Positions 435 through 10,258 of a DNA stretch of 64,000 nt are shown one piece after another. Positions within the stretch are counted from its first letter, which is position 1. The number at the start of each line of letters is the position of its first letter. A model generated the notes under the pieces. The model worked only from the letters and a program-made list of their open reading frames with translations, did not search any database and had not been told where the DNA came from. The position numbers were made by a program, and so were the translations under genes. The stretch is from Candidatus Scalindua arabica (GTDB taxonomy: Bacteria > Planctomycetota > Brocadiia > Brocadiales > Scalinduaceae). The stretch covers positions 9,197 to 73,196 of the forward strand of contig JAANXD010000074.1 of NCBI GenBank assembly GCA_018263435.1. The letters are read 5' to 3'.

Positions 435-2855
435 TTATTTGCCTCGATATCCTGGATAAGGGTCTGGGCCCTGAATATTATCCCACTGAGCGCCCAAATC
501 TACCCATTCAACAAACAAGAATCTTTCTTCTGGTGTCAACATCTTATTATGCATAACCCTAGCTTCAATTGGTATAGCTTTAGCCCTTGGTGCAAACTGT
601 GACAATTCTTCTTCATACAAACGCCATATGAGAAGACTGTTTATAGCAGCACTAGGGTTAACATACTTTCCACCAATGTTAGTATCCCTTCCTCTCTGTG
701 GAGCCAACAGACTGTTATATGATTGGCTGAATGCAGCAACACCATTAACAGATACCAGATCTGTGCTACCACTCAGATTAGGAGTCTGAGTATGACCATG
801 ACAAGAAGCGCACTTTGCGTCTATTATTGGCTGAATGTCTCTCCTGAAGTCAACTGTTCTCAGTTTGTCGATATAAAGACCTTCAACTGTCGCAGAAGTA
901 GTACCTGAAGCACCACCATAATAAACGTCTGCCGGTACCATAACGCTATCACCGTGCTTTACTCCGGCATACTTTCCATTCTTGTCAACTCTTAAGTGTT
1001 CCCACATAAACGGAGAATCATAATGGCTCAAATCACTGAACCACCAGTTATAAAGAGCTTTGGTATGAATGTTCAGATAACCCTTCTTATCATAAGAACC
1101 CCAGTGACAGCCCGTACAAATTCTTCCACCATAAGGCCTTACATATGCCCATGCCAGTTGTGTCTGTACTGCCATTCCTCTGTCATCCAGTATCTGTGTG
1201 CAGTAAGGCTCATCACCTGGATGTGAACTTACAACTGAACCATCATCCTCAACATACTGATAACCAAACATACGTCTTTGTGAGAAAGATGTACCTGAGT
1301 TAGAGCTTGATTTATCGCCACCAAGAAGATGGCTACCAGCACCCTGTACAAACCTGCTGGCATCCGGCTCATTAGTCTCTACTGCGTTAAGTACCCTTAT
1401 AGCCTTTATATCACCATGCTCCATTACCTTTGCTCTCTGATGTGGATATGGACCAATCGGAAGATTTGTCAATGTTGTATCAAAGCATATAGTTGTACTC
1501 CATGAGTGAGGATATCCCTCAACATTAACCTGGTCAAATGGCTGGTACGTTACAGTTGTAACACCAAAATGATCACCTGCAACAAATGCATTTATCCATC
1601 TTGGTTTGTAACGTGGATAAACAGGCTGAGGCTGATGATCATTCCACTCCGGATCATCATAAACTACCTCAGAAACTGTACCATTGTCAACACTGAACCA
1701 GTGTAGACCAAAGTCACGTCTTTCAGCAGAAGAAACCATTAAACGGCCATCCGGCAATGGATGCGGACTTCTGTAGAGTCTGCCATCATTGCTCAACCTG
1801 GATTGCGTTTTAGCATGAGGAGTAGTCCAGCTAACCCTGGCAAGATTACCTATACCAGAATTATTGTCCAAAGCCTCAATGTAATACACATAACCATCTG
1901 AAGCCTCTTTTGCCGAAACCTTAGGCGTGCTTGGCTGCTCGCTAACCTCATTACCATAGATGTGTCTTGGGTAAGCGCCAGTCCAGTTGTTAACTAACAG
2001 GCATGTGCTGCCTTTAGAATTATTATGTGTACCATTTGCCTGTGTACTGCTGTACAAGATGTTTCCATCACGAGTCAGTGTAGGATCAAAATTTGAACTT
2101 ACATTGTATGTGATCTGGTCAATAACAGTATCAACATTCGGCATATCGATACCTACTAATAAGTGACCGCAGATACGATCCATAGACTTTCCACCCTGCG
2201 GATCAAGCCTGTATAAGTCAAAAGCGAATGGTCTTCCAAATTCATCTATTGAACCATCTGGAGAATAAGCAACCATCAGGAAACCCATCTTTGGAACTGT
2301 ACCACGAGGAGCCCAGTCACCTTCAAAATACCTGGCCCTTGATATAACTCTACCTTCACCTTCCTCAATAGCACCGGCTGCATAATAGAGAGGGGACCTG
2401 AATGTACCAGGCGCATCAGTCATCTGCCTTACGCCTGAACCATCAATATTCATCTCCCATATCTGACTGCCACCACCATTTTTGTGAACACCTGCAAATG
2501 CAATCTTTGAACAATCCCAGTTAAGGCAAGGATCATAAGCGCTCTGGAAATCTTTTGTAAGCACAGTCACTTTCCTTGACTTCATGTTGTAAGACACAAT
2601 CCTGCTATCATTAGATACGTAATTAGGGTATTGATGATACGGGTCGCCTGCCAGTGTAGGCTTTGACTGGGTAAAAACAACAGACTCAACGTTTCCTTGA
2701 ATCTGTTTTGACATACCCCAGTAATCCGCCCAAATAGCTTCACCAGGCTTTGGACCACCAGTCATAACCTGCGCCTGACAGTCAGCACTGCTAAAAAGCC
2801 CCCATATTGCAACAACACCAACCAATGCTATTGACTTTAAAAATCCCATCTTCAT
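435..2855 (-). CDS. hzsA: hydrazine synthase alpha subunit
   Basis: The ORF track gives 435-2897 (GTG). ATG at 2855 is preferred: it has AAGGAG upstream and yields an MKMGFLKSIALVGVVAIWG signal peptide (806 aa). The protein contains YFEGDW, SHYDSPF and two haem c sites (CTGCH, CASCH). 2313-2330 is an exact match to the hzsA_526F primer TAYTTTGAAGGDGACTGG as I recall it. Confidence 0.9.
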   Translation of the reverse strand: MKMGFLKSIALVGVVAIWGLFSSADCQAQVMTGGPKPGEAIWADYWGMSKQIQGNVESVVFTQSKPTLAGDPYHQYPNYVSNDSRIVSYNMKSRKVTVLTKDFQSAYDPCLNWDCSKIAFAGVHKNGGGSQIWEMNIDGSGVRQMTDAPGTFRSPLYYAAGAIEEGEGRVISRARYFEGDWAPRGTVPKMGFLMVAYSPDGSIDEFGRPFAFDLYRLDPQGGKSMDRICGHLLVGIDMPNVDTVIDQITYNVSSNFDPTLTRDGNILYSSTQANGTHNNSKGSTCLLVNNWTGAYPRHIYGNEVSEQPSTPKVSAKEASDGYVYYIEALDNNSGIGNLARVSWTTPHAKTQSRLSNDGRLYRSPHPLPDGRLMVSSAERRDFGLHWFSVDNGTVSEVVYDDPEWNDHQPQPVYPRYKPRWINAFVAGDHFGVTTVTYQPFDQVNVEGYPHSWSTTICFDTTLTNLPIGPYPHQRAKVMEHGDIKAIRVLNAVETNEPDASRFVQGAGSHLLGGDKSSSNSGTSFSQRRMFGYQYVEDDGSVVSSHPGDEPYCTQILDDRGMAVQTQLAWAYVRPYGGRICTGCHWGSYDKKGYLNIHTKALYNWWFSDLSHYDSPFMWEHLRVDKNGKYAGVKHGDSVMVPADVYYGGASGTTSATVEGLYIDKLRTVDFRRDIQPIIDAKCASCHGHTQTPNLSGSTDLVSVNGVAAFSQSYNSLLAPQRGRDTNIGGKYVNPSAAINSLLIWRLYEEELSQFAPRAKAIPIEARVMHNKMLTPEERFLFVEWVDLGAQWDNIQGPDPYPGYRGK

Positions 2856-2928
2856 AAGTTGGTTTACTCCTTTCCTTTTTAATGTTAATTGAAACACAAA
2901 TTATAAGACAACGAAAGTTTTCATAGAG

Positions 2929-2977: not shown

Positions 2978-5050
2978 TTATAAAGCCTTCATGAACTCAA
3001 CAAGATCCTGCAACTCTTGATTACTCAGATGTGATGTAACCCCATGCATATCTTGTGTAGTAGCTGTATTATCTATGGTATTCATCAGAGTCTCAGCGCT
3101 ACCATCATGGAAATATGTACCTGAAGCGTAAATATCTCTCAATGTAGGCGTATCAAACTCTTTTACAAGATCAAGTCCGATAATTGGAACATCGTACTCT
3201 TCACCATAAGGATCAACACCGGTCTCAAGAACTGTTGTATTAAACACAGCTCCAGGAGTTGTCCTGAATCCATCAGCACCAATTCTACCTGTTCCAACGT
3301 CATGAGTCTGTGCGTCACTGAATAAGGCTCTTGGGTTCTTTGGATCGCCAGGATGGCACTCAATACATCCAACCTTAGGATCACTAAATACCTTCCAGCC
3401 TCTCTTCTGTGCTTCTGTCATTGAACCATCTTCATTCCTGAAAGGACTTCCTGTAAACTCTAAAGACCTGATGTAAGCAATCAAGGCCTCTAATCTTTCA
3501 GGAGAGAAATTCTCACTTCTGAACACAAATCCAGGATCTCGTCCGCATACCCTGTCGATCGATGAAGCAGCTCCAACGATTTCATCAGGATGACCTGTAA
3601 ATCCTTCATGCCTGAACGGAGGAAGATACCTTCCGCCTCGGATATACTTTGTGTTCTTCCAACTGCCCCATCCTTCATCTCCAAGATCCCAGATCAAGCC
3701 TGTTGTCTGACCTCTTTCATAGTGGCAGCTTGCACATGAATACTCACCCTGCAGTGTCCATGATGCTTCATTAAACTGGAACTGTCCATATCGGACCAAT
3801 TCGCTCTTGTAAGGAGAGTGCTTCACCCTGTAATGTACTTCAGGAACTGTCAACGGCTCTCCCCTTGGAAGCGGCTCCCACACAATACCTGTCTGTACTG
3901 TATCCATAACCTGAGGGTCATCACCTGTCTGGATAATTGACAAGTCATTTGTGAAATAGTTTGCAGCGTATAAAGTCTTATCATCCGGAGAAAGAGCAAC
4001 TGAACTTGGGCCGAGGCCTACATTTACCCTTTTAACCAGATAATCAACCATCAAAGTCAGGTCATTCTTCATGTCATCAAGCTCTTCCTGAGTGCTTGAA
4101 GAAACGATAGCAAGCAACGCTTCCAGATCAAGGACAGTTATCCTGTGCATACTCCTGATACCAATAAAAACATACTTTCCTTCTGAATCAATTGCTAATC
4201 CATAAGGATTACCATCGTAATTGTTGTGCTCATCCAGAGGCATGCTTGCAACCTTTCCACCGGCCTTGGTCTCAACAACAGCAATGTTGTTTGAGAATAT
4301 CTGTGCATTCTCCGCTTCACATACAGGCAGCCAGTTCTTTGGCTGTTCCATTGTAACAAGCACATATGCTCCATCAGGCGTATACTCAATACCTCTCAAG
4401 TTTGCACTCTGATATATATTTCTGTGCTCAGTAACCCTTCCTGTTGCAAGATCTATGAAGTCAATACCCCTGTTGATCTTACCTGTTGTATCAAGGCATA
4501 CTGCCGCAGTTTTTCCGTCAGGGGAAATAGCTATATCCCTTGGGCCGTAATCAGTTGTCCTGATCTCACCGATTTTGCTATTCATCGCAGTGTCAATGAT
4601 ATCAACTGAATTCCACATACTACCGGAACAACATACATAAGCCTTTGAACCGTCTTTAGACAGCTTGATACTACAAGGCCAGTCACCAACTTTTATTGTC
4701 TTAACAACCGCCTTGTTACCTACATCAATAACTGATACAGTATCACTCTCTGCATTACACACATACAAAGTACGTCCGTCCAGTGAAAACACAGACGCTT
4801 CAGGTTGAACCTGAACAGGAACCTCTCCGGTCACCTTGTTAGACCTCGCATCAACAAACGTCACGCTATGGCCAGACTGATTGCTCAAAGCCAATGTCCC
4901 ACCATCAGGCGAAACAGACACGTGAAATGGTGATGGATGCTCTGTTCTCACCCTTGTACCCTGTATGAAGCCGGCACCGGCGCTTTGAGCCAATGCTAAG
5001 CTCAACACCCCAGCACCCAAGAAACCTAATAACCAAGCCTTTTTCTTCAT
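2978..5050 (-). CDS. hzsBC: hydrazine synthase fused beta-propeller (N-terminal) + di-haem cytochrome c peroxidase/MauG-like (C-terminal) subunit
   Basis: 690 aa with signal peptide MKKKAWLLGFLGAGVLSLALA. The N-terminal half has YVTN-type propeller repeats (SPDG..L....SV..ID). The C-terminal half has CASCH and CIECH plus GWGSWK and QTHDVGT. 3656-3675 and 3291-3310 match the hzsB_396F/742R primers as I recall them. Confidence 0.88.
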   Translation of the reverse strand: MKKKAWLLGFLGAGVLSLALAQSAGAGFIQGTRVRTEHPSPFHVSVSPDGGTLALSNQSGHSVTFVDARSNKVTGEVPVQVQPEASVFSLDGRTLYVCNAESDTVSVIDVGNKAVVKTIKVGDWPCSIKLSKDGSKAYVCCSGSMWNSVDIIDTAMNSKIGEIRTTDYGPRDIAISPDGKTAAVCLDTTGKINRGIDFIDLATGRVTEHRNIYQSANLRGIEYTPDGAYVLVTMEQPKNWLPVCEAENAQIFSNNIAVVETKAGGKVASMPLDEHNNYDGNPYGLAIDSEGKYVFIGIRSMHRITVLDLEALLAIVSSSTQEELDDMKNDLTLMVDYLVKRVNVGLGPSSVALSPDDKTLYAANYFTNDLSIIQTGDDPQVMDTVQTGIVWEPLPRGEPLTVPEVHYRVKHSPYKSELVRYGQFQFNEASWTLQGEYSCASCHYERGQTTGLIWDLGDEGWGSWKNTKYIRGGRYLPPFRHEGFTGHPDEIVGAASSIDRVCGRDPGFVFRSENFSPERLEALIAYIRSLEFTGSPFRNEDGSMTEAQKRGWKVFSDPKVGCIECHPGDPKNPRALFSDAQTHDVGTGRIGADGFRTTPGAVFNTTVLETGVDPYGEEYDVPIIGLDLVKEFDTPTLRDIYASGTYFHDGSAETLMNTIDNTATTQDMHGVTSHLSNQELQDLVEFMKAL

Positions 5051-5099
5051 TCTTCACCTCCAAAACATAAAATTATAAAATTGTATTGCAACATCACTA

Positions 5100-5696
5100 C
5101 TAAAAATCAGGAACATGAGGACATGTTCCTGACTCCCTGCAAAGGGTGTCAAGCGGTCCTCCACACTCCTTACAATTACCGTATGTCAATAGATGTTCTG
5201 CATATTCCTTCTTTTCATCAATCTCAAACCCTGCTCCCGGTTCGGTAAACTCCTTACCACATTTTGTACACTTGAAGTCAAGCTTTGCTCTAGTCATATT
5301 AGCTGTCAAGTCATCATTGCACAATTCGCAAAAGCCAATGTTAAAAGCATAGCAAGTCTTGGAATTCTCACATTTATCGTTTACGCAATGATATGTTTTC
5401 CTTAAACATGACCAAGTCTCTTCCATTTTATGCGTAGCAACTTCTTCACCAGCTTTATGTTTCTTGGTATCCCAGATGTATTTCAGATTACCGCATTCAT
5501 TCCAGGTAAAGACCTCCTTGCATACTGTGCACCAAAACAACTTTTCATTCTCTTTCTTTGGACATGCTTTTTCGCCCTCTGCTACTGCAAAATTCATCTG
5601 GCTACCCAAGAACAAAACCACACAAAGAAAGGCACTAAATAACAAAGCTTTGCCAATGTAACGTCTTAATGTATACACCTCTTCACCCCCTTTCAT
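5100..5696 (-). CDS. exported Cys-rich protein with four CxxC pairs (two zinc-ribbon/rubredoxin-like knuckle pairs), family unknown
   Basis: 198 aa with a hydrophobic N-terminus ending AVA/EGE. The mature part has 16 Cys including CTVC, CELC, CTKC and CKEC. An alternative GTG start at 5678 has a GGGGG SD. It lies 49 nt upstream of the fused HZS gene on the same strand. Confidence 0.6.
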   Translation of the reverse strand: MKGGEEVYTLRRYIGKALLFSAFLCVVLFLGSQMNFAVAEGEKACPKKENEKLFWCTVCKEVFTWNECGNLKYIWDTKKHKAGEEVATHKMEETWSCLRKTYHCVNDKCENSKTCYAFNIGFCELCNDDLTANMTRAKLDFKCTKCGKEFTEPGAGFEIDEKKEYAEHLLTYGNCKECGGPLDTLCRESGTCPHVPDF

Positions 5697-5734: not shown

Positions 5735-5750
5735 AGCATATCACGTGCCA
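5735..5750 (-). promoter_or_regulatory. candidate sigma54 (-24/-12) promoter for the Cys-rich protein/HZS genes
   Basis: The minus strand reads TGGCACGTGATATGCT. GG and GC are spaced exactly as in the consensus TGGCACG-N4-TTGCW. It is about 40 nt upstream of ATG 5696 and adjacent to an NtrC-type activator gene. Confidence 0.5.
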
Positions 5751-5935
5751 AAGCACTACTGCCTTATACATTTGACGTAAGCCATTTAGCACGAAAGCCT
5801 TGATTAAAAGCTTTCGAAAGCACTTTCCAAATGGCACCAAAAAACTGGCTCAAAAAAGCCAATATGCCATTCCAACCGCCAGTAATCTATCAAAAACTGC
5901 AATCAAAATCAATAATTTTAATTTTAATAAGCAGC

Positions 5936-7324
5936 TTAGTTATTATCGTATTTTTCCAATCTATACCTGAATGTTCCCCTGGTAAGACCCAGCAACTTAG
6001 CCGCCTTAGTTTTATTGTTTTTGCTTTTCTTCAGCGCCTGCAAAACAAGGTGCTTTTCCAATTCATCTATTGAAATCCCCTCTGGCGGCAGATTAAAATC
6101 CACCATCTTTAATACATTCCCTTTACCATTCTCATAGCCCGACACAGAATCCCTAACTAAAGCCAGCGGAAGATGTTCTTCTGATATCAAGTCACCCTTA
6201 CTCAGGATTACGGCTCTTTCCAGGCAATTTCTCAACTCCCTCACATTGCCCTCCCACCTGCTTGAAACAAGTATCTTTTCTACTTTCTTTGTCATTTTTA
6301 ACGATAGTTTACCCATTTTAACAGAAAACTGCTCAACAAAGTCCCGTGCTAATGGCAAAATATCCTCAGGCCTTGCCCTGAGTGGAGGTATATTTATTGG
6401 AAACACATTAACGCGATAATATAAATCCTCTCTAAATTGACCTTTTTTAACATACTCTTCAAGATTTTTATTACTGGCACATATAATCCTTACATCAACT
6501 TTAACTGTTTCCGACCCTCCAAGCCGCTCCAGCTCTCTTTCTTCAACAACTCTTAACACTTTGGCTTGAACAATGGGATTCATTTCCGATATTTCATCGA
6601 GAAACAGAGTGCCTCCGTTAGCCAACTCAAAACGGCCTTTCTTGCATTTCTCTGCACCAGTAAATGCACCCTTTTCATAACCAAACAATTCACTCTCTAA
6701 TAAATTCTCAGGCAACGCAGCACAGTTTATCGTAACTAATGGGCCGCTCTTCCTTAAACTATTAAAATGGATGGCCCTTGCTACAAGCTCTTTCCCCGTA
6801 CCACTTTCTCCATAGATAAATACGGTAGAATCCGTTCTGGAAACATCTCCAGCTAATAAAAGCACTTCTAATATCTTAGGTGAATTACCAATAATATTTC
6901 CAAAATTATAATGCGACTCTAACTCCTTTCGAAGATACCTGTTTTCCATTGTCAAAGATCTCATTTTCAGGGCTTTTTCTACTGCGACAGAAAGCGTACC
7001 ATCTTCAAATGGTTTTGTAATGTAATCAAACGCTCCTTCCTTCATCGATTCAACCGCCGTCTCGATGGAGTCATCCCCTGTCACAACAATCACAGGCAGT
7101 TCAGGATCCATTGACTTCACCTGTTTCAAGAATTCTAATCTGCCCACCTTGGGTACTCGCAGATCAGTAATGATTAAATGAAGCCTTTCGTGCTCAACAA
7201 AATCAACTATCGAAGTTACGTCTTGCGCCTTAACAACTTCGATATTTTCCATCTCGTCAAAAATAACCTTGATATTGCGTATTATACGTTCCTCGTCATC
7301 AGTTATCAGCACCCTGCTAACCAT
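5936..7324 (-). CDS. sigma54-dependent response regulator (NtrC family: REC + AAA+ + Fis-type HTH)
   Basis: 462 aa: REC with DDEE and [15 protein letters not shown] Walker [16 protein letters not shown] (GAFTGA loop), and a C-terminal [20 protein letters not shown]. Confidence 0.9.
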
Positions 7325-7366: not shown

Positions 7367-8278
7367 TCAGAACGCAAAAATACTAAAAATATCAAAATGA
7401 ATATTTTTGGTCAAATCTACAAAAACAGAAGCAAGGGAACATATTAGCGACGACAACATAAAACCGACCATAAGCAAACCAACTCCAAGAAGCGGAAGCC
7501 CCATCAGCTTAGATACAAACTTGGCCTTGCGAGATGCAGGTGGAACCTTAAGCTCCTCCAACTGCCCTTCTTCTTTCAACCTCTCATAATAAACACCTCT
7601 CTCGTGCTTAAAGTGCTCTTCGTCAATCCTTCCAGTAAACATTGCTTCATCTACAGGTATATTCTCCGGCAAGAGGTGGGTATGCAAAAAGTGAATGGAA
7701 AAGATGAAGCCTGCAGCCAGCAAGGCTTCATACCTGTGAGCAACGAGTGCGATGCTTGGCAAATCTATAAAGGTCGCAAGTTCAGCAGGTACTAAATTCG
7801 CGGATTGTACTGGAAACCAAAGGATAAATCCTGTAACAGCCATAACCATAGTGCCCCACATAAGCGAAAGATATTCAAACTTTTCCCAATAGATATATCT
7901 ATCAAACTGTGGCCTTTTCCCCAATCTGAAAAACCACAAGATATCTCCCAATATATTTAATAAATCCTTTGGCTGAATCAACAAAGATTCCGGTCCCCAG
8001 AAAATGTTCCTATTCTTCCTTACAAGGGTTTCAAAGGCTAGAAACGCAAAGTGCAGAAAGGTTGCAACAAAAGTTATCAAAGCACAAATCCTGTGAATAT
8101 TACCAGCGGTAGGATAACCACCCATAAGATTATACAGGAAGTGAGCCCATCCATAATCTTTGAAAACCAGCGGCATTCCGGTTAACACCAACCCAAAGAA
8201 ACTAATTATTATAAGAAAATGACCAAAACGGTGAAACAGGCCAAATCTTAGATAAGTAGTATTACCATTACTTGTCAT
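7367..8278 (-). CDS. cytochrome b-like integral membrane subunit of the HZS-associated electron-transfer module (FdnI/hydrogenase cytochrome b type)
   Basis: 303 aa with multiple TM helices carrying conserved His (HRFGH, HRICA, HRYEA, HFLHTH). Its ATG at 8278 overlaps the upstream stop by 11 nt. Confidence 0.75.
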   Translation of the reverse strand: MTSNGNTTYLRFGLFHRFGHFLIIISFFGLVLTGMPLVFKDYGWAHFLYNLMGGYPTAGNIHRICALITFVATFLHFAFLAFETLVRKNRNIFWGPESLLIQPKDLLNILGDILWFFRLGKRPQFDRYIYWEKFEYLSLMWGTMVMAVTGFILWFPVQSANLVPAELATFIDLPSIALVAHRYEALLAAGFIFSIHFLHTHLLPENIPVDEAMFTGRIDEEHFKHERGVYYERLKEEGQLEELKVPPASRKAKFVSKLMGLPLLGVGLLMVGFMLSSLICSLASVFVDLTKNIHFDIFSIFAF

Positions 8279-9281
8279 GTTCTGATTCCTTTCCTTTTCG
8301 CTCGTCCAATAATGTGCCTAACCACGACAAAAGCATATGCGTTCCAAATTGTGCAAAGGTTATTACCAAAATGCCCACATACATAATGAAGAGAATTGTC
8401 AATATTATCTGCGGACTCTTTATAATGCTGCCAAGCTGACCAGGATCTTTCCTGATATTCAGCAAGGCACCAACCGCAGATTTGTAATAACCAAGGTTTT
8501 TATATTGCGGATGTGCTACATGTTTAATAAAGCTATCACTGGCACCCGGATGGCATTTACCGCACGTCTCTTTAGCATTTTCCGGGCCCAGAGTAGACTC
8601 TGGATCTGATGAGTTCAATATGGTATGTTGGCCATGACAATCAACACACGTTGCTATGTCAGTATCTACATGCCCCATCGCTGTAACCTGGCCATGCAGA
8701 TTATTACGATAAGAATCATAGTATTCAGTGTGACACCCACCACATTTTCCTATAGTATCCATCCTGTGATACAAATCATCAGCCCTGGGAGTATCACGTT
8801 TGGACTTCTCTCCTGCATGGCAATGTTTACAGGTAGGAAGCTCCACACCTTTTTCCCGCATCAAATTTGCGTGACTACCTTCAAGAAATGTTTCGGCAGG
8901 ATCGTCATGACAAAATGTTATACAATCAACAGGCTGCAAATTAGGATAATGCTCGCCTTCTGATTCTTCTAAATCAGCATGACAATCAATACAGTAAAAA
9001 TCCTCACCGCCATGAGCAGATGCATGATATGCATCTTCATCAACCAGCATAGAGACAAGCTCTACTTCGCCGGTAACAGGATCGATTCTTACCTTATCCT
9101 CCACCTCTGCAGGATCTGTATGACACTCTAGACAGTCACTATTCTCCTGAGCGAAGATATTTTCTGAAGAAAAAGTAGAAGTGAAAAACAAAAGACATGA
9201 GAAAAGAGATGAAATAAATACAAATCTACAAACTTTACTATCCCTATATATTTTTATCGTTGTTTTCAGCAAAGATACCAC
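8268..9281 (-). CDS. membrane-anchored hepta-haem cytochrome c
   Basis: Six CxxCH motifs (CLECH, CIDCH, CKHCH, CGGCH, CVDCH, CGKCH) plus one CITFCH (CX3CH), and a C-terminal TM. The track start is 9359 (TTG). GTG at 9281 is preferred because of a GAGGAGG SD and the resulting signal peptide. Confidence 0.85.
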   Translation of the reverse strand: MVSLLKTTIKIYRDSKVCRFVFISSLFSCLLFFTSTFSSENIFAQENSDCLECHTDPAEVEDKVRIDPVTGEVELVSMLVDEDAYHASAHGGEDFYCIDCHADLEESEGEHYPNLQPVDCITFCHDDPAETFLEGSHANLMREKGVELPTCKHCHAGEKSKRDTPRADDLYHRMDTIGKCGGCHTEYYDSYRNNLHGQVTAMGHVDTDIATCVDCHGQHTILNSSDPESTLGPENAKETCGKCHPGASDSFIKHVAHPQYKNLGYYKSAVGALLNIRKDPGQLGSIIKSPQIILTILFIMYVGILVITFAQFGTHMLLSWLGTLLDERKGKESEHDK

Positions 9282-9386
9282 TTTATGATTTCCTCCTCTT
9301 GTTTGAAAGAAAGATAGTACATTTAAACAGTGGGTCAAACTTTCACTACAGCTACGCAACTTTTATTAAAAAGCAGAACACAATCA

Positions 9387-9418
9387 TCTCCCCTCCTCAT
9401 AAATAGAAGGAGGGGAGA
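9387..9418 (-). other. intercistronic stem-loop between the tri-haem and hepta-haem genes
   Basis: 11-bp GC-rich arms TCTCCCCTCCT / AGGAGGGGAGA with a 10-nt loop and no T run directly after it. Confidence 0.45.
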
Positions 9419-9514
9419 GAAAGAATAACTTACTGCCGTTACTTTTTTAAAAGCTACTAATGTGAAGCTTTAACTTTACAAATTAATTACTAAAGAAACA
9501 AAAAACCATTACAA

Positions 9515-10258
9515 TTAATCGTTAGGCGGACTTGTCTTATACCACGGATCCTGCTCTATGTACCCCTTCCATTTCTTTTTATCCACCTTAGGCAAAACGT
9601 CATCTATAGCATCATGGTCTCTGTGATCGTCTCTCTTAATGTAATCTTTAGTGAAGATCCTGTCATTACCTTCGCTGTTTTTTGTACCTTCGCACTTAGG
9701 GCACTTATTCTTGGCCTTTGCATCTTCCCAGTGGCATTGTAGACATTGCTCTTTTATTGTCTTGTACTTATTTATGCCGGCTACGAGCAAGCCAGCATCG
9801 TATTGCGCTTTTCTGGCCATCATTGGGTCTTCCTTTAACAGCTTTTTAAATGCGTCTTTACCCTTCTTCTTGTAATTTTTCTTTACCTTAATGTATCCCT
9901 CTCCCGGACCGTGACATGCTTCACATCCAACGTTTTCAATAAAGTTCTTACTACCCTTCTTAGACTTCCCCCTCTTTATCTTCATACCCAACGCTGTGGC
10001 ATGGCATTTCAGGCACTCAGGATTACTCTTATCTTCATCGGTTTCTAACCTTCTAAAAGTATTATAATGCTGATTCTTCATCTTCTTGTATTCTGTACCT
10101 TCAAAACAGCCCTTTGACAAGTGGCATTTACAACCTGAATTACTCATGAATTTCCACTTCTGCTTTGCGCCAAAACTCTGGCTACTTTGAAAGATTATAA
10201 GCGACAAAGAAAGAACTACAGACACCATGATAAATCTTCTTAAATTACAACCGAACAT
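9515..10258 (-). CDS. soluble tri-haem cytochrome c (electron-transfer module)
   Basis: 247 aa with a signal peptide, CLKCH, CEACH and CLQCH, plus an N-terminal CKCH. It is Lys-rich. An SD AAGGAGAAGGGGG lies upstream of ATG 10258. Confidence 0.8.
   Translation of the reverse strand: MFGCNLRRFIMVSVVLSLSLIIFQSSQSFGAKQKWKFMSNSGCKCHLSKGCFEGTEYKKMKNQHYNTFRRLETDEDKSNPECLKCHATALGMKIKRGKSKKGSKNFIENVGCEACHGPGEGYIKVKKNYKKKGKDAFKKLLKEDPMMARKAQYDAGLLVAGINKYKTIKEQCLQCHWEDAKAKNKCPKCEGTKNSEGNDRIFTKDYIKRDDHRDHDAIDDVLPKVDKKKWKGYIEQDPWYKTSPPND

Follow-up and report, generated by a model that had tools for sequence, protein, structure and literature searches.

Hydrazine synthase (HZS) is the defining enzyme of anaerobic ammonium oxidation (anammox), a process to which reports attribute up to half of the N2 formed worldwide. 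In a 64,000-nucleotide stretch from Candidatus Scalindua arabica (contig JAANXD010000074.1; hereafter the window), hzsBC, which encodes the fused beta and gamma subunits of this enzyme, is preceded on the minus strand by an open reading frame (ORF), listed at 5100-5696 and encoding 198 aa, whose product is rich in cysteine. What would such a protein do beside hydrazine synthase? The original prediction, made from the sequence, had pictured an exported protein that serves HZS as a metal-binding accessory factor, an assembly chaperone or a small redox partner. We found a real gene that keeps its place next to hzs in all anammox families, and we tentatively favor a role of its product in the maturation of HZS.

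A gene kept beside hzs across anammox bacteria

In the anammox order, the family profile matched 79 of 92 genomes, and in the other orders of the class none of 40. One of these 40 genomes (G097) has an HZS-gamma-like gene, and the profile search found no Cys-rich gene in it. An exhaustive HMMER search of 1.84 billion representative proteins returned 19 clusters in total, and a word-indexed search returned 33 close relatives, which belong to Scalindua where labelled. The profile search and cluster look-up placed members in Brocadia, Loosdrechtia, Anammoxibacter, Bathyanammoxibius, Avalokitesvara and Scalindua sediminis, all of them annotated as 'hypothetical protein'. Among the 13 genomes of the order that gave no match, G079 has a contig that ends inside hzs-beta, and G060 and G075 have only a secondary hzs copy assembled; many of the family matches sit at contig ends beside hzs. 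G055, a 99%-complete draft, also gave no match: in contig C179 (L055), the 4 kb upstream of an hzs-gamma copy contain neither a recognizable hzs-beta nor a Cys-rich gene. The hzs copy there may be incomplete, and the main cluster may be missing from the assembly. A partial copy in G043 (contig C4) was rejected as a truncated gene because the contig end cuts it off.

The proteins of the window's cluster were mapped onto 14 loci from all five anammox families. The order was the same in 14 of 14 loci: genes for a small multihaem c-type cytochrome, a heptahaem c-type cytochrome and cytochrome b, which form an electron-transfer module (ETM), then a sigma54 regulator where present, the Cys-rich gene, hzs-beta, hzs-gamma and hzsA. 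In these loci and in the window, the Cys-rich gene is located directly upstream of hzs-beta on the same strand, separated from it by 40-125 nt. Two families (G001 and G002; G003 and G016) and one genus of Brocadiaceae (G053) have no sigma54 regulator in the cluster. Sigma54-like elements precede the orthologue at every locus whose cluster contains the activator (L045, L041, L042, L032-L035 and L037), and none was found at loci without it. As the Cys-rich gene stays in place where the regulator is absent, it is tied to hzs and the ETM more tightly than the regulator is. The absence of both the regulator and the -24/-12 element in some lineages indicates that the regulation of hzs differs between lineages. 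At five loci (L038, L039, L040, L043 and L036), which have neither, the Cys-rich gene directly follows the cytochrome b gene.

The ORF is a real gene under purifying selection. The ratio of non-synonymous to synonymous substitution rates (dN/dS) was computed against 13 ungapped orthologues of the same genus, of which 10 could be scored and 3 were saturated in dS. It was 0.14-0.29 for the three closest orthologues and 0.07-0.10 for the seven more distant ones. Conservation in 79 genomes, dN/dS of 0.07-0.29 and detection of the Kuenenia orthologue by mass spectrometry place this gene far beyond chance. Its length needs a correction. Within 5676-5696, the first six listed codons (ATG AAA GGG GGT GAA GAG) spell an extended Shine-Dalgarno (SD) sequence, AAAGGGGGTGA, which is conserved 5-9 nt before the orthologue start codon in 15 loci from five anammox families. 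The start codons themselves vary among ATG, GTG and TTG, and the orthologues P0004, P0006 and P0009 begin at the equivalent of codon 7 (192 aa). Because the conserved SD sits within the listed ORF and orthologues begin just beyond it, the real start is most likely the GTG at 5678, which would give a 192-aa precursor and a mature protein of 159 aa and 18.2 kDa. The listed ORF therefore stands as coding and conserved, and its distance to hzsBC is exactly the predicted 49 nt (5051-5099), while its true length is probably 192 aa instead of 198 aa.

We next turn to Kuenenia, from which the protein-level data come. Using tblastn, the window protein was matched over its whole length to an orthologue in Kuenenia MBR1 (L034; E = 1.5e-34, 38% identity), and the family profile matched the MBR1 genome (G049) with E = 1.5e-64. 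This orthologue has an ATG start, 181 aa and a mass of 20.25 kDa, and its gene is flanked by the regulator gene and by the counterpart of kuste2859-61 among the hzs copies. The listed mass of KsCSTR_28180/kuste2858 is 20.2 kDa (PMC11897245, Table S1). By this position and matching mass, the window protein is an orthologue of kuste2858 (KSMBR1/KsCSTR_28180), which is listed only as 'unknown protein' or 'uncharacterized protein'. The two proteins have in common their genomic position, the 16-Cys pattern, the signal peptide and a C-terminal SGTCPH motif. The Kuenenia locus differs in that the beta and gamma genes are separate and in that extra hzs copies are present without kuste2858. In the literature searched, no function is given to kuste2858, its sequence is not discussed, and no paper links hydrazine synthase with a cysteine-rich protein.

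Export, abundance and probable metal ligands

The window protein has the hydrophobic leader, the AVA|EGE cleavage site and the 16 mature Cys, including CTVC, CELC, CTKC and CKEC, that had been predicted for it. It has no CxxC motif followed by His, as also predicted, and a c-type cytochrome was rejected on this ground. Export is borne out at the level of prediction, as SignalP6 calls kuste2858 'SP' (PMC11897245, Table S1). A Tat (twin-arginine translocation) signal, suggested by TLRRYIGK in the window leader, was rejected, because the RR pair is not conserved (orthologues have RG, VK, RA, KK and similar pairs) and because of this SignalP6 call. A lipoprotein was rejected as well, there being no lipobox before the first mature Cys. 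The leader thus points to Sec export of the unfolded protein, which speaks against Fe-S clusters and in favor of sites that can form by themselves after export; Zn sites would be the likeliest of these. In the list of Medema et al. (PMC2881027 supplement), kuste2858 carries a predicted signal peptide and the localization code 'A', which we read as anammoxosome.

Kuste2858 has been detected by mass spectrometry, so that the orthologue is indeed found in proteomes. Its label-free quantification intensity was ~1.4-1.8e5, the HZS subunits reaching ~2e7; cells grown on nitric oxide (NO) gave no detection, in contrast to the two other growth conditions (Hu et al., PMC6423088). In strain CSTR1, the intensities were 7.45e8 for kuste2858, 1.1-1.8e11 for HZS and 5.6e9 for Kuste2854 (PMC11897245). 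From these values the abundance of kuste2858 is ~13% of that of Kuste2854 and ~0.5% of that of HZS, the latter being a rough figure since mass-spectrometric intensity underestimates small Cys-rich proteins. The protein distributed as 30% membrane, 14% intermediate and 56% soluble, while HZS was ~95% in the large-particle fraction, and in native size-exclusion chromatography (SEC) it peaked in fraction F21 (16.0-16.5 mL, with the small NaxLS dimer), compared with F13 for HZS and F20 for Kuste2854 (PMC11897245). Its transcript drops together with those of the hzs and ETM genes under hydrazine exposure (PMC12053348). Taken together, kuste2858 is a cleaved, soluble, low-abundance monomer, neither a stable HZS subunit nor membrane-anchored. 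A stable HZS subunit is contradicted by the SEC profile (F21 versus F13), by the intensity of ~0.5% of HZS and by the absence of the protein from the PDB chains.

In an alignment of 46 sequences, 14 of the 16 Cys show no or almost no variation, and the residues S189, G190, C192, P193 and H194 of the C-terminal motif are invariant; W55, W95, D129 and F141 are also conserved. The two remaining variable positions are C178, which is Asp in 12 sequences, and C146, which is lost in 10 sequences within a C-P-D-G-H context. These two changes never occur together in one protein, and mature Cys counts across orthologues are 15, 16, 17 or 18. AlphaFold2 (AF2) models were beta-hairpin-rich, with a predicted local distance difference test score (pLDDT) of 76 for the precursor and 80 for the mature domain, the latter with a predicted template modeling score (pTM) of 0.69. 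In both models C143xxC146 and C175xxC178 are placed at hairpin turns; the last 9 residues have a pLDDT of ~32-35, and the N-terminal C45 likewise falls in a low-confidence segment. Because the changes at C146 and C178 are mutually exclusive, the pattern fits one ribbon-type site formed by C143/C146 and C175/C178. DsbB was found in 0 of 21 anammox genomes searched and VKOR in 3 of the 21, VKOR being absent from the window genome and from three near-complete (98-100%) genomes of other families. The single Asp/His replacements, the odd Cys counts, the absence of DsbB and the rarity of VKOR favor metal sites over disulfides, and the metal is probably Zn. Metal ligands withstand such one-sided exchanges and odd counts, which partners in a disulfide bond do not.

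No known family was recognized, in agreement with the original prediction, by Pfam, NCBIfam, PDB sequence or Foldseek searches. Pfam and NCBIfam scans of the window protein gave no model above cut-off. DUF7351 (PF24042; 14.9 bits, E = 0.023, gathering cut-off 31.2 bits) and NF041197, a dual CXXC motif small (seleno)protein (16.2 bits, E = 0.0086, cut-off 40 bits), were rejected as CxxC-driven matches below their cut-offs. The PDB sequence-profile search yielded only a C2H2 zinc-finger protein at E = 0.36, which was rejected, and Foldseek searches of the PDB with both AF2 models found no structural neighbor (best E ~0.8, TM 0.19-0.30). The top non-significant Foldseek matches were Zn-ribbon-containing domains, and no curated profile of the zinc-ribbon family (RPC12/RpoP, COG1996-type) matched the window protein. 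Rubredoxin, a domain of ~50 aa with CxxCG...CPxCG motifs, was rejected because no such profile matched and because the window protein has other motifs (CTVCKE, CELCND, CTKCGK and CKECGG), and the DnaJ-type zinc finger (PF00684) because it gave no match and only 2 of the 4 motifs have Gly directly after the second Cys.

So far as our searches show, the family-level picture is new, with a gene that is confined to anammox bacteria, occurs in nearly all of them and is firmly linked to hzs, and so is the 16-Cys ligand pattern with Asp/His substitutions in a protein that has no sequence or fold relative. As a kind, small accessory proteins with metal knuckles whose genes adjoin that of their enzyme are familiar. 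Orthologues next to hzs, expression and a conserved Cys pattern were all found, the lack of any of which would, according to the original prediction, have spoken against it.

Candidate roles

We tentatively propose, giving it somewhat less than an even chance, that the protein is a Zn-stabilized accessory or maturation factor of HZS that acts transiently in the anammoxosome lumen. Four points argue for this role: the gene is closely tied to hzs, and its product is of low stoichiometry, elutes freely in SEC and tolerates ligand substitutions. The protein would be exported unfolded via Sec into the lumen and fold there around several, probably four, tetrahedral metal sites built from the 16 Cys and one or two His, most likely with Zn, their CxxC knuckles lying at beta-hairpin turns. 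The metal cross-links would replace disulfides in the strongly reducing compartment of an organism without DsbB and VKOR. The gene would belong to an ancestral HZS module made up of the ETM, the Cys-rich gene and hzs, and in the window genome it would be transcribed from the sigma54 promoter that heads the hzs unit. Its product might then act on HZS transiently and sub-stoichiometrically, for example as a subunit holdase or by delivering metal through the flexible SGTCPH tail, and would be neither a stable HZS subunit nor the main electron donor. HZS-alpha has one Zn per heterotrimer (10.64898/2026.02.25.707902), and the metal delivered could be this alpha-subunit Zn.

Proteins whose way of working may be comparable are found in plants. 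BSD2, PSA2 and LQY1, DnaJ-type zinc-finger assembly factors from energy-transducing compartments, are small, bind Zn with four CxxC motifs and assist the assembly of an abundant enzyme complex transiently and in sub-stoichiometric amounts; PSA2 works in the thylakoid lumen. The likeness would lie in the way of working only, an analogy without homology, as the window protein is without the CxxCxGxG repeat and a PF00684 match. Zinc-ribbon and zinc-knuckle modules (the Zn motifs of RPC12/RpoP, MCM and Mcm10) resemble its AF2 models in having CxxC pairs at hairpin turns, 15-30 residues apart, and some orthologues carry an automatic JGI annotation as RPC12/RpoP. The ribbons differ in being typically cytoplasmic binders of nucleic acids or proteins, whereas the Cys-rich protein is exported and combines four knuckles and eight further Cys in one 159-aa unit. 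Within anammox bacteria, a parallel is kustc1130, the hydrazine dehydrogenase assembly factor, likewise a small anammox-specific protein of formerly unknown function that accompanies a key enzyme (PMC11897245). Kustc1130, however, is unrelated in sequence, is 97% in the large-particle fraction and peaks at F14 in SEC, whereas kuste2858 is free at F21 (PMC11897245, Table S1).

Several points weigh against our proposal. The free elution in SEC fits an unrelated soluble role equally well. Strong constraint on the gene in the genus in which beta and gamma are fused shows that it is not simply an aid to beta-gamma assembly. All the proteomic evidence comes from Kuenenia, whose orthologue is 38% identical, rather than from the window organism, and the abundance relative to HZS carries the bias toward underestimation mentioned above. 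The assignment of ligands to sites draws on secondary structure and on the substitution pattern, and Fe or Cu in Cys4 sites would be an alternative to Zn. The metal, the compartment in the window organism and the maturation role are what we infer from these data.

The same observations bear on four other explanations. Purified HZS is slow, and a missing suitable electron donor is one explanation given for this (10.64898/2026.02.25.707902). A small metal-thiolate carrier with rubredoxin-like Fe(Cys)4 sites could shuttle electrons between the ETM and haem gamma-II of HZS; its gene lies between the ETM and hzs in every family, it has four CxxC pairs, and it elutes in the SEC range of known small carriers (NaxLS at F21, Kuste2854 at F20). 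We consider this unlikely, because the Sec-type signal means unfolded export, and we know of no Sec-exported Fe-Cys redox protein. Further, single replacements of Cys by Asp or His are tolerated at the knuckles, which is usual for structural Zn and would shift a redox potential, the abundance is ~13% of Kuste2854 and ~0.5% of HZS, and there is no rubredoxin or ferredoxin profile match. Kuste2854, a tetrahaem protein, has already been reported to exchange electrons with HZS (PMC8388095), so that the electron donor of HZS, which the original prediction treated as an open matter, is less so than assumed. Of the three roles put forward at the outset, which sequence cannot separate, a redox partner is weakened by Sec export, by Asp/His at ligand positions, by low abundance and by the Kuste2854-HZS exchange, and a metal-binding accessory factor is favored; a stable HZS partner is contradicted (SEC F21 versus F13). 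A loosely bound fourth component of the ETM (the Kuste2854-2856 equivalents), without action on HZS, would for instance help to dock the small multihaem cytochrome to the membrane complex. In keeping with this, the Cys-rich gene is single-copy as the ETM genes are, in contrast to hzs; it remains beside the ETM where hzs has been duplicated and comes right after the cytochrome b gene in those families that lack the regulator. Kuste2858 fractionates near Kuste2854 (30/14/56% versus 21/32/47% in membrane, intermediate and cytosolic fractions) and in adjacent SEC fractions. This is a long shot, since the SEC peak comes one fraction after that of Kuste2854, as for separate monomers of 17 and 28 kDa, the distance to hzs-beta (40-125 nt) is always smaller than that to the ETM genes, and the promoter, where present, is shared with hzs.

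Zn-thiolate sites are known targets of NO, and a lumenal Zn-thiolate sensor or regulator could react with NO, hydroxylamine or the redox state and, by binding, alter the activity of HZS or the ETM, or else act back on the sigma54 system. By analogy it might resemble ZraP, a periplasmic Zn-binding chaperone under the control of sigma54 and ZraSR. ZraP itself is a helical member of the CpxP family and, unlike the window protein, not rich in Cys. The two would have in common that a small metal-binding protein (the metal being predicted for the window protein) is exported, has a sigma54 promoter and adjoins a sigma54 response regulator. The gene lies directly behind the sigma54 activator and promoter here and in most families, the low abundance is as expected of a regulator, and the orthologue was undetected in NO-grown Kuenenia and detected in the two other conditions (PMC6423088). 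In contrast to ZraP, the present family has come apart from the regulator in several anammox lineages: two families and one genus have neither the activator nor the -24/-12 element in the cluster, and the Cys-rich gene stays. No histidine kinase or membrane partner is encoded beside it, and there is no obvious signaling route to the cytoplasm, because the protein is soluble with a cleaved leader; we regard such a sensor as quite unlikely. A secreted protein knotted by 8 disulfides, with a metal-independent function, is very improbable. The window protein is exported and has an even number of Cys (16), as this would require, but many orthologues have 15 or 17 mature Cys with single replacements, the counts of DsbB (0/21) and VKOR (3/21) are low and neither is in the window genome, the organelle contains hydrazine, and CxxC knuckles at hairpin turns are the geometry of metal sites. 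A Zn-stabilized accessory or maturation factor is the role we retain.

Gene cluster, copy number and implications

The features of the locus are collected in Table 1. The same gene order has been reported for kuste2854-2861 of Kuenenia (PMC6423088; PMC12053348). The gene lies downstream of a sigma54 promoter element, as predicted, and there is no terminator between it and hzsBC. Between the activator gene and this promoter lies the terminator-like hairpin, which would put the activator on a transcript of its own, apart from that of the Cys-rich/hzs unit. An internal hzs promoter was sought on the minus strand of 5051-5696, where neither a sigma54 match (<=2 mismatches) nor a sigma70-like site was found, and co-transcription of the Cys-rich gene with hzs is plausible from this arrangement.

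Table 1. Positions of the Cys-rich gene, its signals and its neighbors in the window, and of tandem paralogues at other loci
Feature	Position	Strand	Remarks
Probable true coding sequence of the Cys-rich protein	5100..5678	(-)	GTG start, 192-aa precursor; stop codon 5100-5102; based on the conserved SD upstream
Start of the listed ORF	ATG at 5696	(-)	198-aa version
Extended Shine-Dalgarno AAAGGGGGTGA	5683..5693	(-)	inside the listed ORF, 4 nt before GTG 5678
Predicted Sec-type signal peptide MYTLRRYIGKALLFSAFLCVVLFLGSQMNFAVA	5580..5678	(-)	cleavage predicted after AVA
Mature 159-aa domain, 16 Cys	5103..5579	(-)	beta-hairpin-rich; four CxxC at hairpin turns (alignments, AF2)
Near-invariant C-terminal motif S-G-T-C-P-H	5115..5132	(-)	low-confidence, presumably flexible tail
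49-nt spacer to hzsBC	5051..5099	(-)	carries the hzsBC SD GGAGGTGA, no terminator
hzsBC, beta-gamma fusion subunit of hydrazine synthase	2978..5050	(-)	NF052342, 1622 bits
hzsA, alpha subunit of hydrazine synthase	435..2897	(-)	NF052339, 1629 bits
Sigma54 -24/-12 promoter element TGGCACGTGATATGCT	5735..5750	(-)	upstream of the Cys-rich gene
Terminator-like hairpin and T run	5844..5863	(-)	between activator gene and sigma54 promoter
Sigma54-dependent response regulator (kuste2857 equivalent)	5936..7324	(-)	PF00158, PF00072, PF02954
Electron-transfer module (ETM)	7367..10258	(-)	three genes, Pfam/NCBIfam scans; order common to all families
Cytochrome b of the ETM	7367-8278	(-)	
Multihaem c of the ETM	8268-9359	(-)	
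Kuste2854-type small multihaem c of the ETM	9515-10258	(-)	
Tandem paralogues of the Cys-rich gene	L044 9838-11094; L045 9765-11035		also G080, G070, G089

Two features of the neighboring genes may be mentioned. In the small multihaem cytochrome (9515-10258), CKCH at 10121-10132 probably is a true haem site; for Kuste2854, a haem motif contracted to CXCH has been described. Only in the window's genus are the HZS beta and gamma subunits fused (2978-5050 compared with L041, L044 and L045), and in other genera of the window's family the beta and gamma genes are separate, ~170 nt apart.

Many anammox genomes have two to four hzs copies and only one Cys-rich gene. In Kuenenia, identity between the main and extra hzs copies starts ~30 nt before hzs-beta, past the Cys-rich gene. 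The secondary hzs copies at L046 (Kuenenia MBR1), L048, L050, L051, L056 and L057 are without the Cys-rich gene and the ETM and are preceded by a paralogous sigma54 activator (39-42% identity). In G045, G066 and G023 this activator is 41-42% identical, and the extra hzs copy has a GG-N10-GC promoter-like element and an ORF-free leader of 230-290 nt before it; L048, L050 and L051, the three loci checked for these signals, have both. The leaders of L048 and L051 contain a GTGAAAGGAGGTGGTT motif that resembles the SD/start region of the Cys-rich gene and may be a relic of it.

Two Cys-rich paralogues in tandem, ~58% and ~41% identical to the window protein, occur in several genomes of the window's family. 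Only the first type is present in the window's genus and only the second in genus g2 (G064-G067), a pattern that points to an ancient duplication of the gene and later loss of one or the other copy. A long ORF, P0045 (824 aa), has beta-propeller-like NNSGQVVW repeats and a C-terminus that matches residues 91-195 of the Cys-rich protein, this part being preceded by the signal-cleavage-like AVRAEGGACPK. P0045 is either a fusion made in gene calling or a third paralogue that is shortened at its N-terminus.

The Cys-rich gene, whose product has had no name other than "unknown protein" since 2006, is among the very few that occur in anammox bacteria only, in nearly all of them and in firm linkage to hzs, and whose product is made and exported. 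It can also serve as an additional marker gene that separates true anammox HZS clusters from the HZS-like genes of non-anammox bacteria, which lack it. Purified HZS reaches ~1-5% of cellular rates and is about 100-fold slower than the enzyme in cells. A bolder idea, which we think unlikely, is that the kuste2858 family is the missing component that gives HZS its in vivo rates, a metal-thiolate activator or maturase of unseen fold that would load the alpha-subunit Zn/haem alpha-I site or gate the delivery of electrons or NO via its SGTCPH tail. If this were true, addition of a kuste2858-family protein to purified HZS would close much of the ~100-fold gap between in vitro and cellular rates. The Cys-rich protein is a concrete candidate for the factor absent from purified HZS, and as such may offer a handle on the low activity of hydrazine synthase in vitro.

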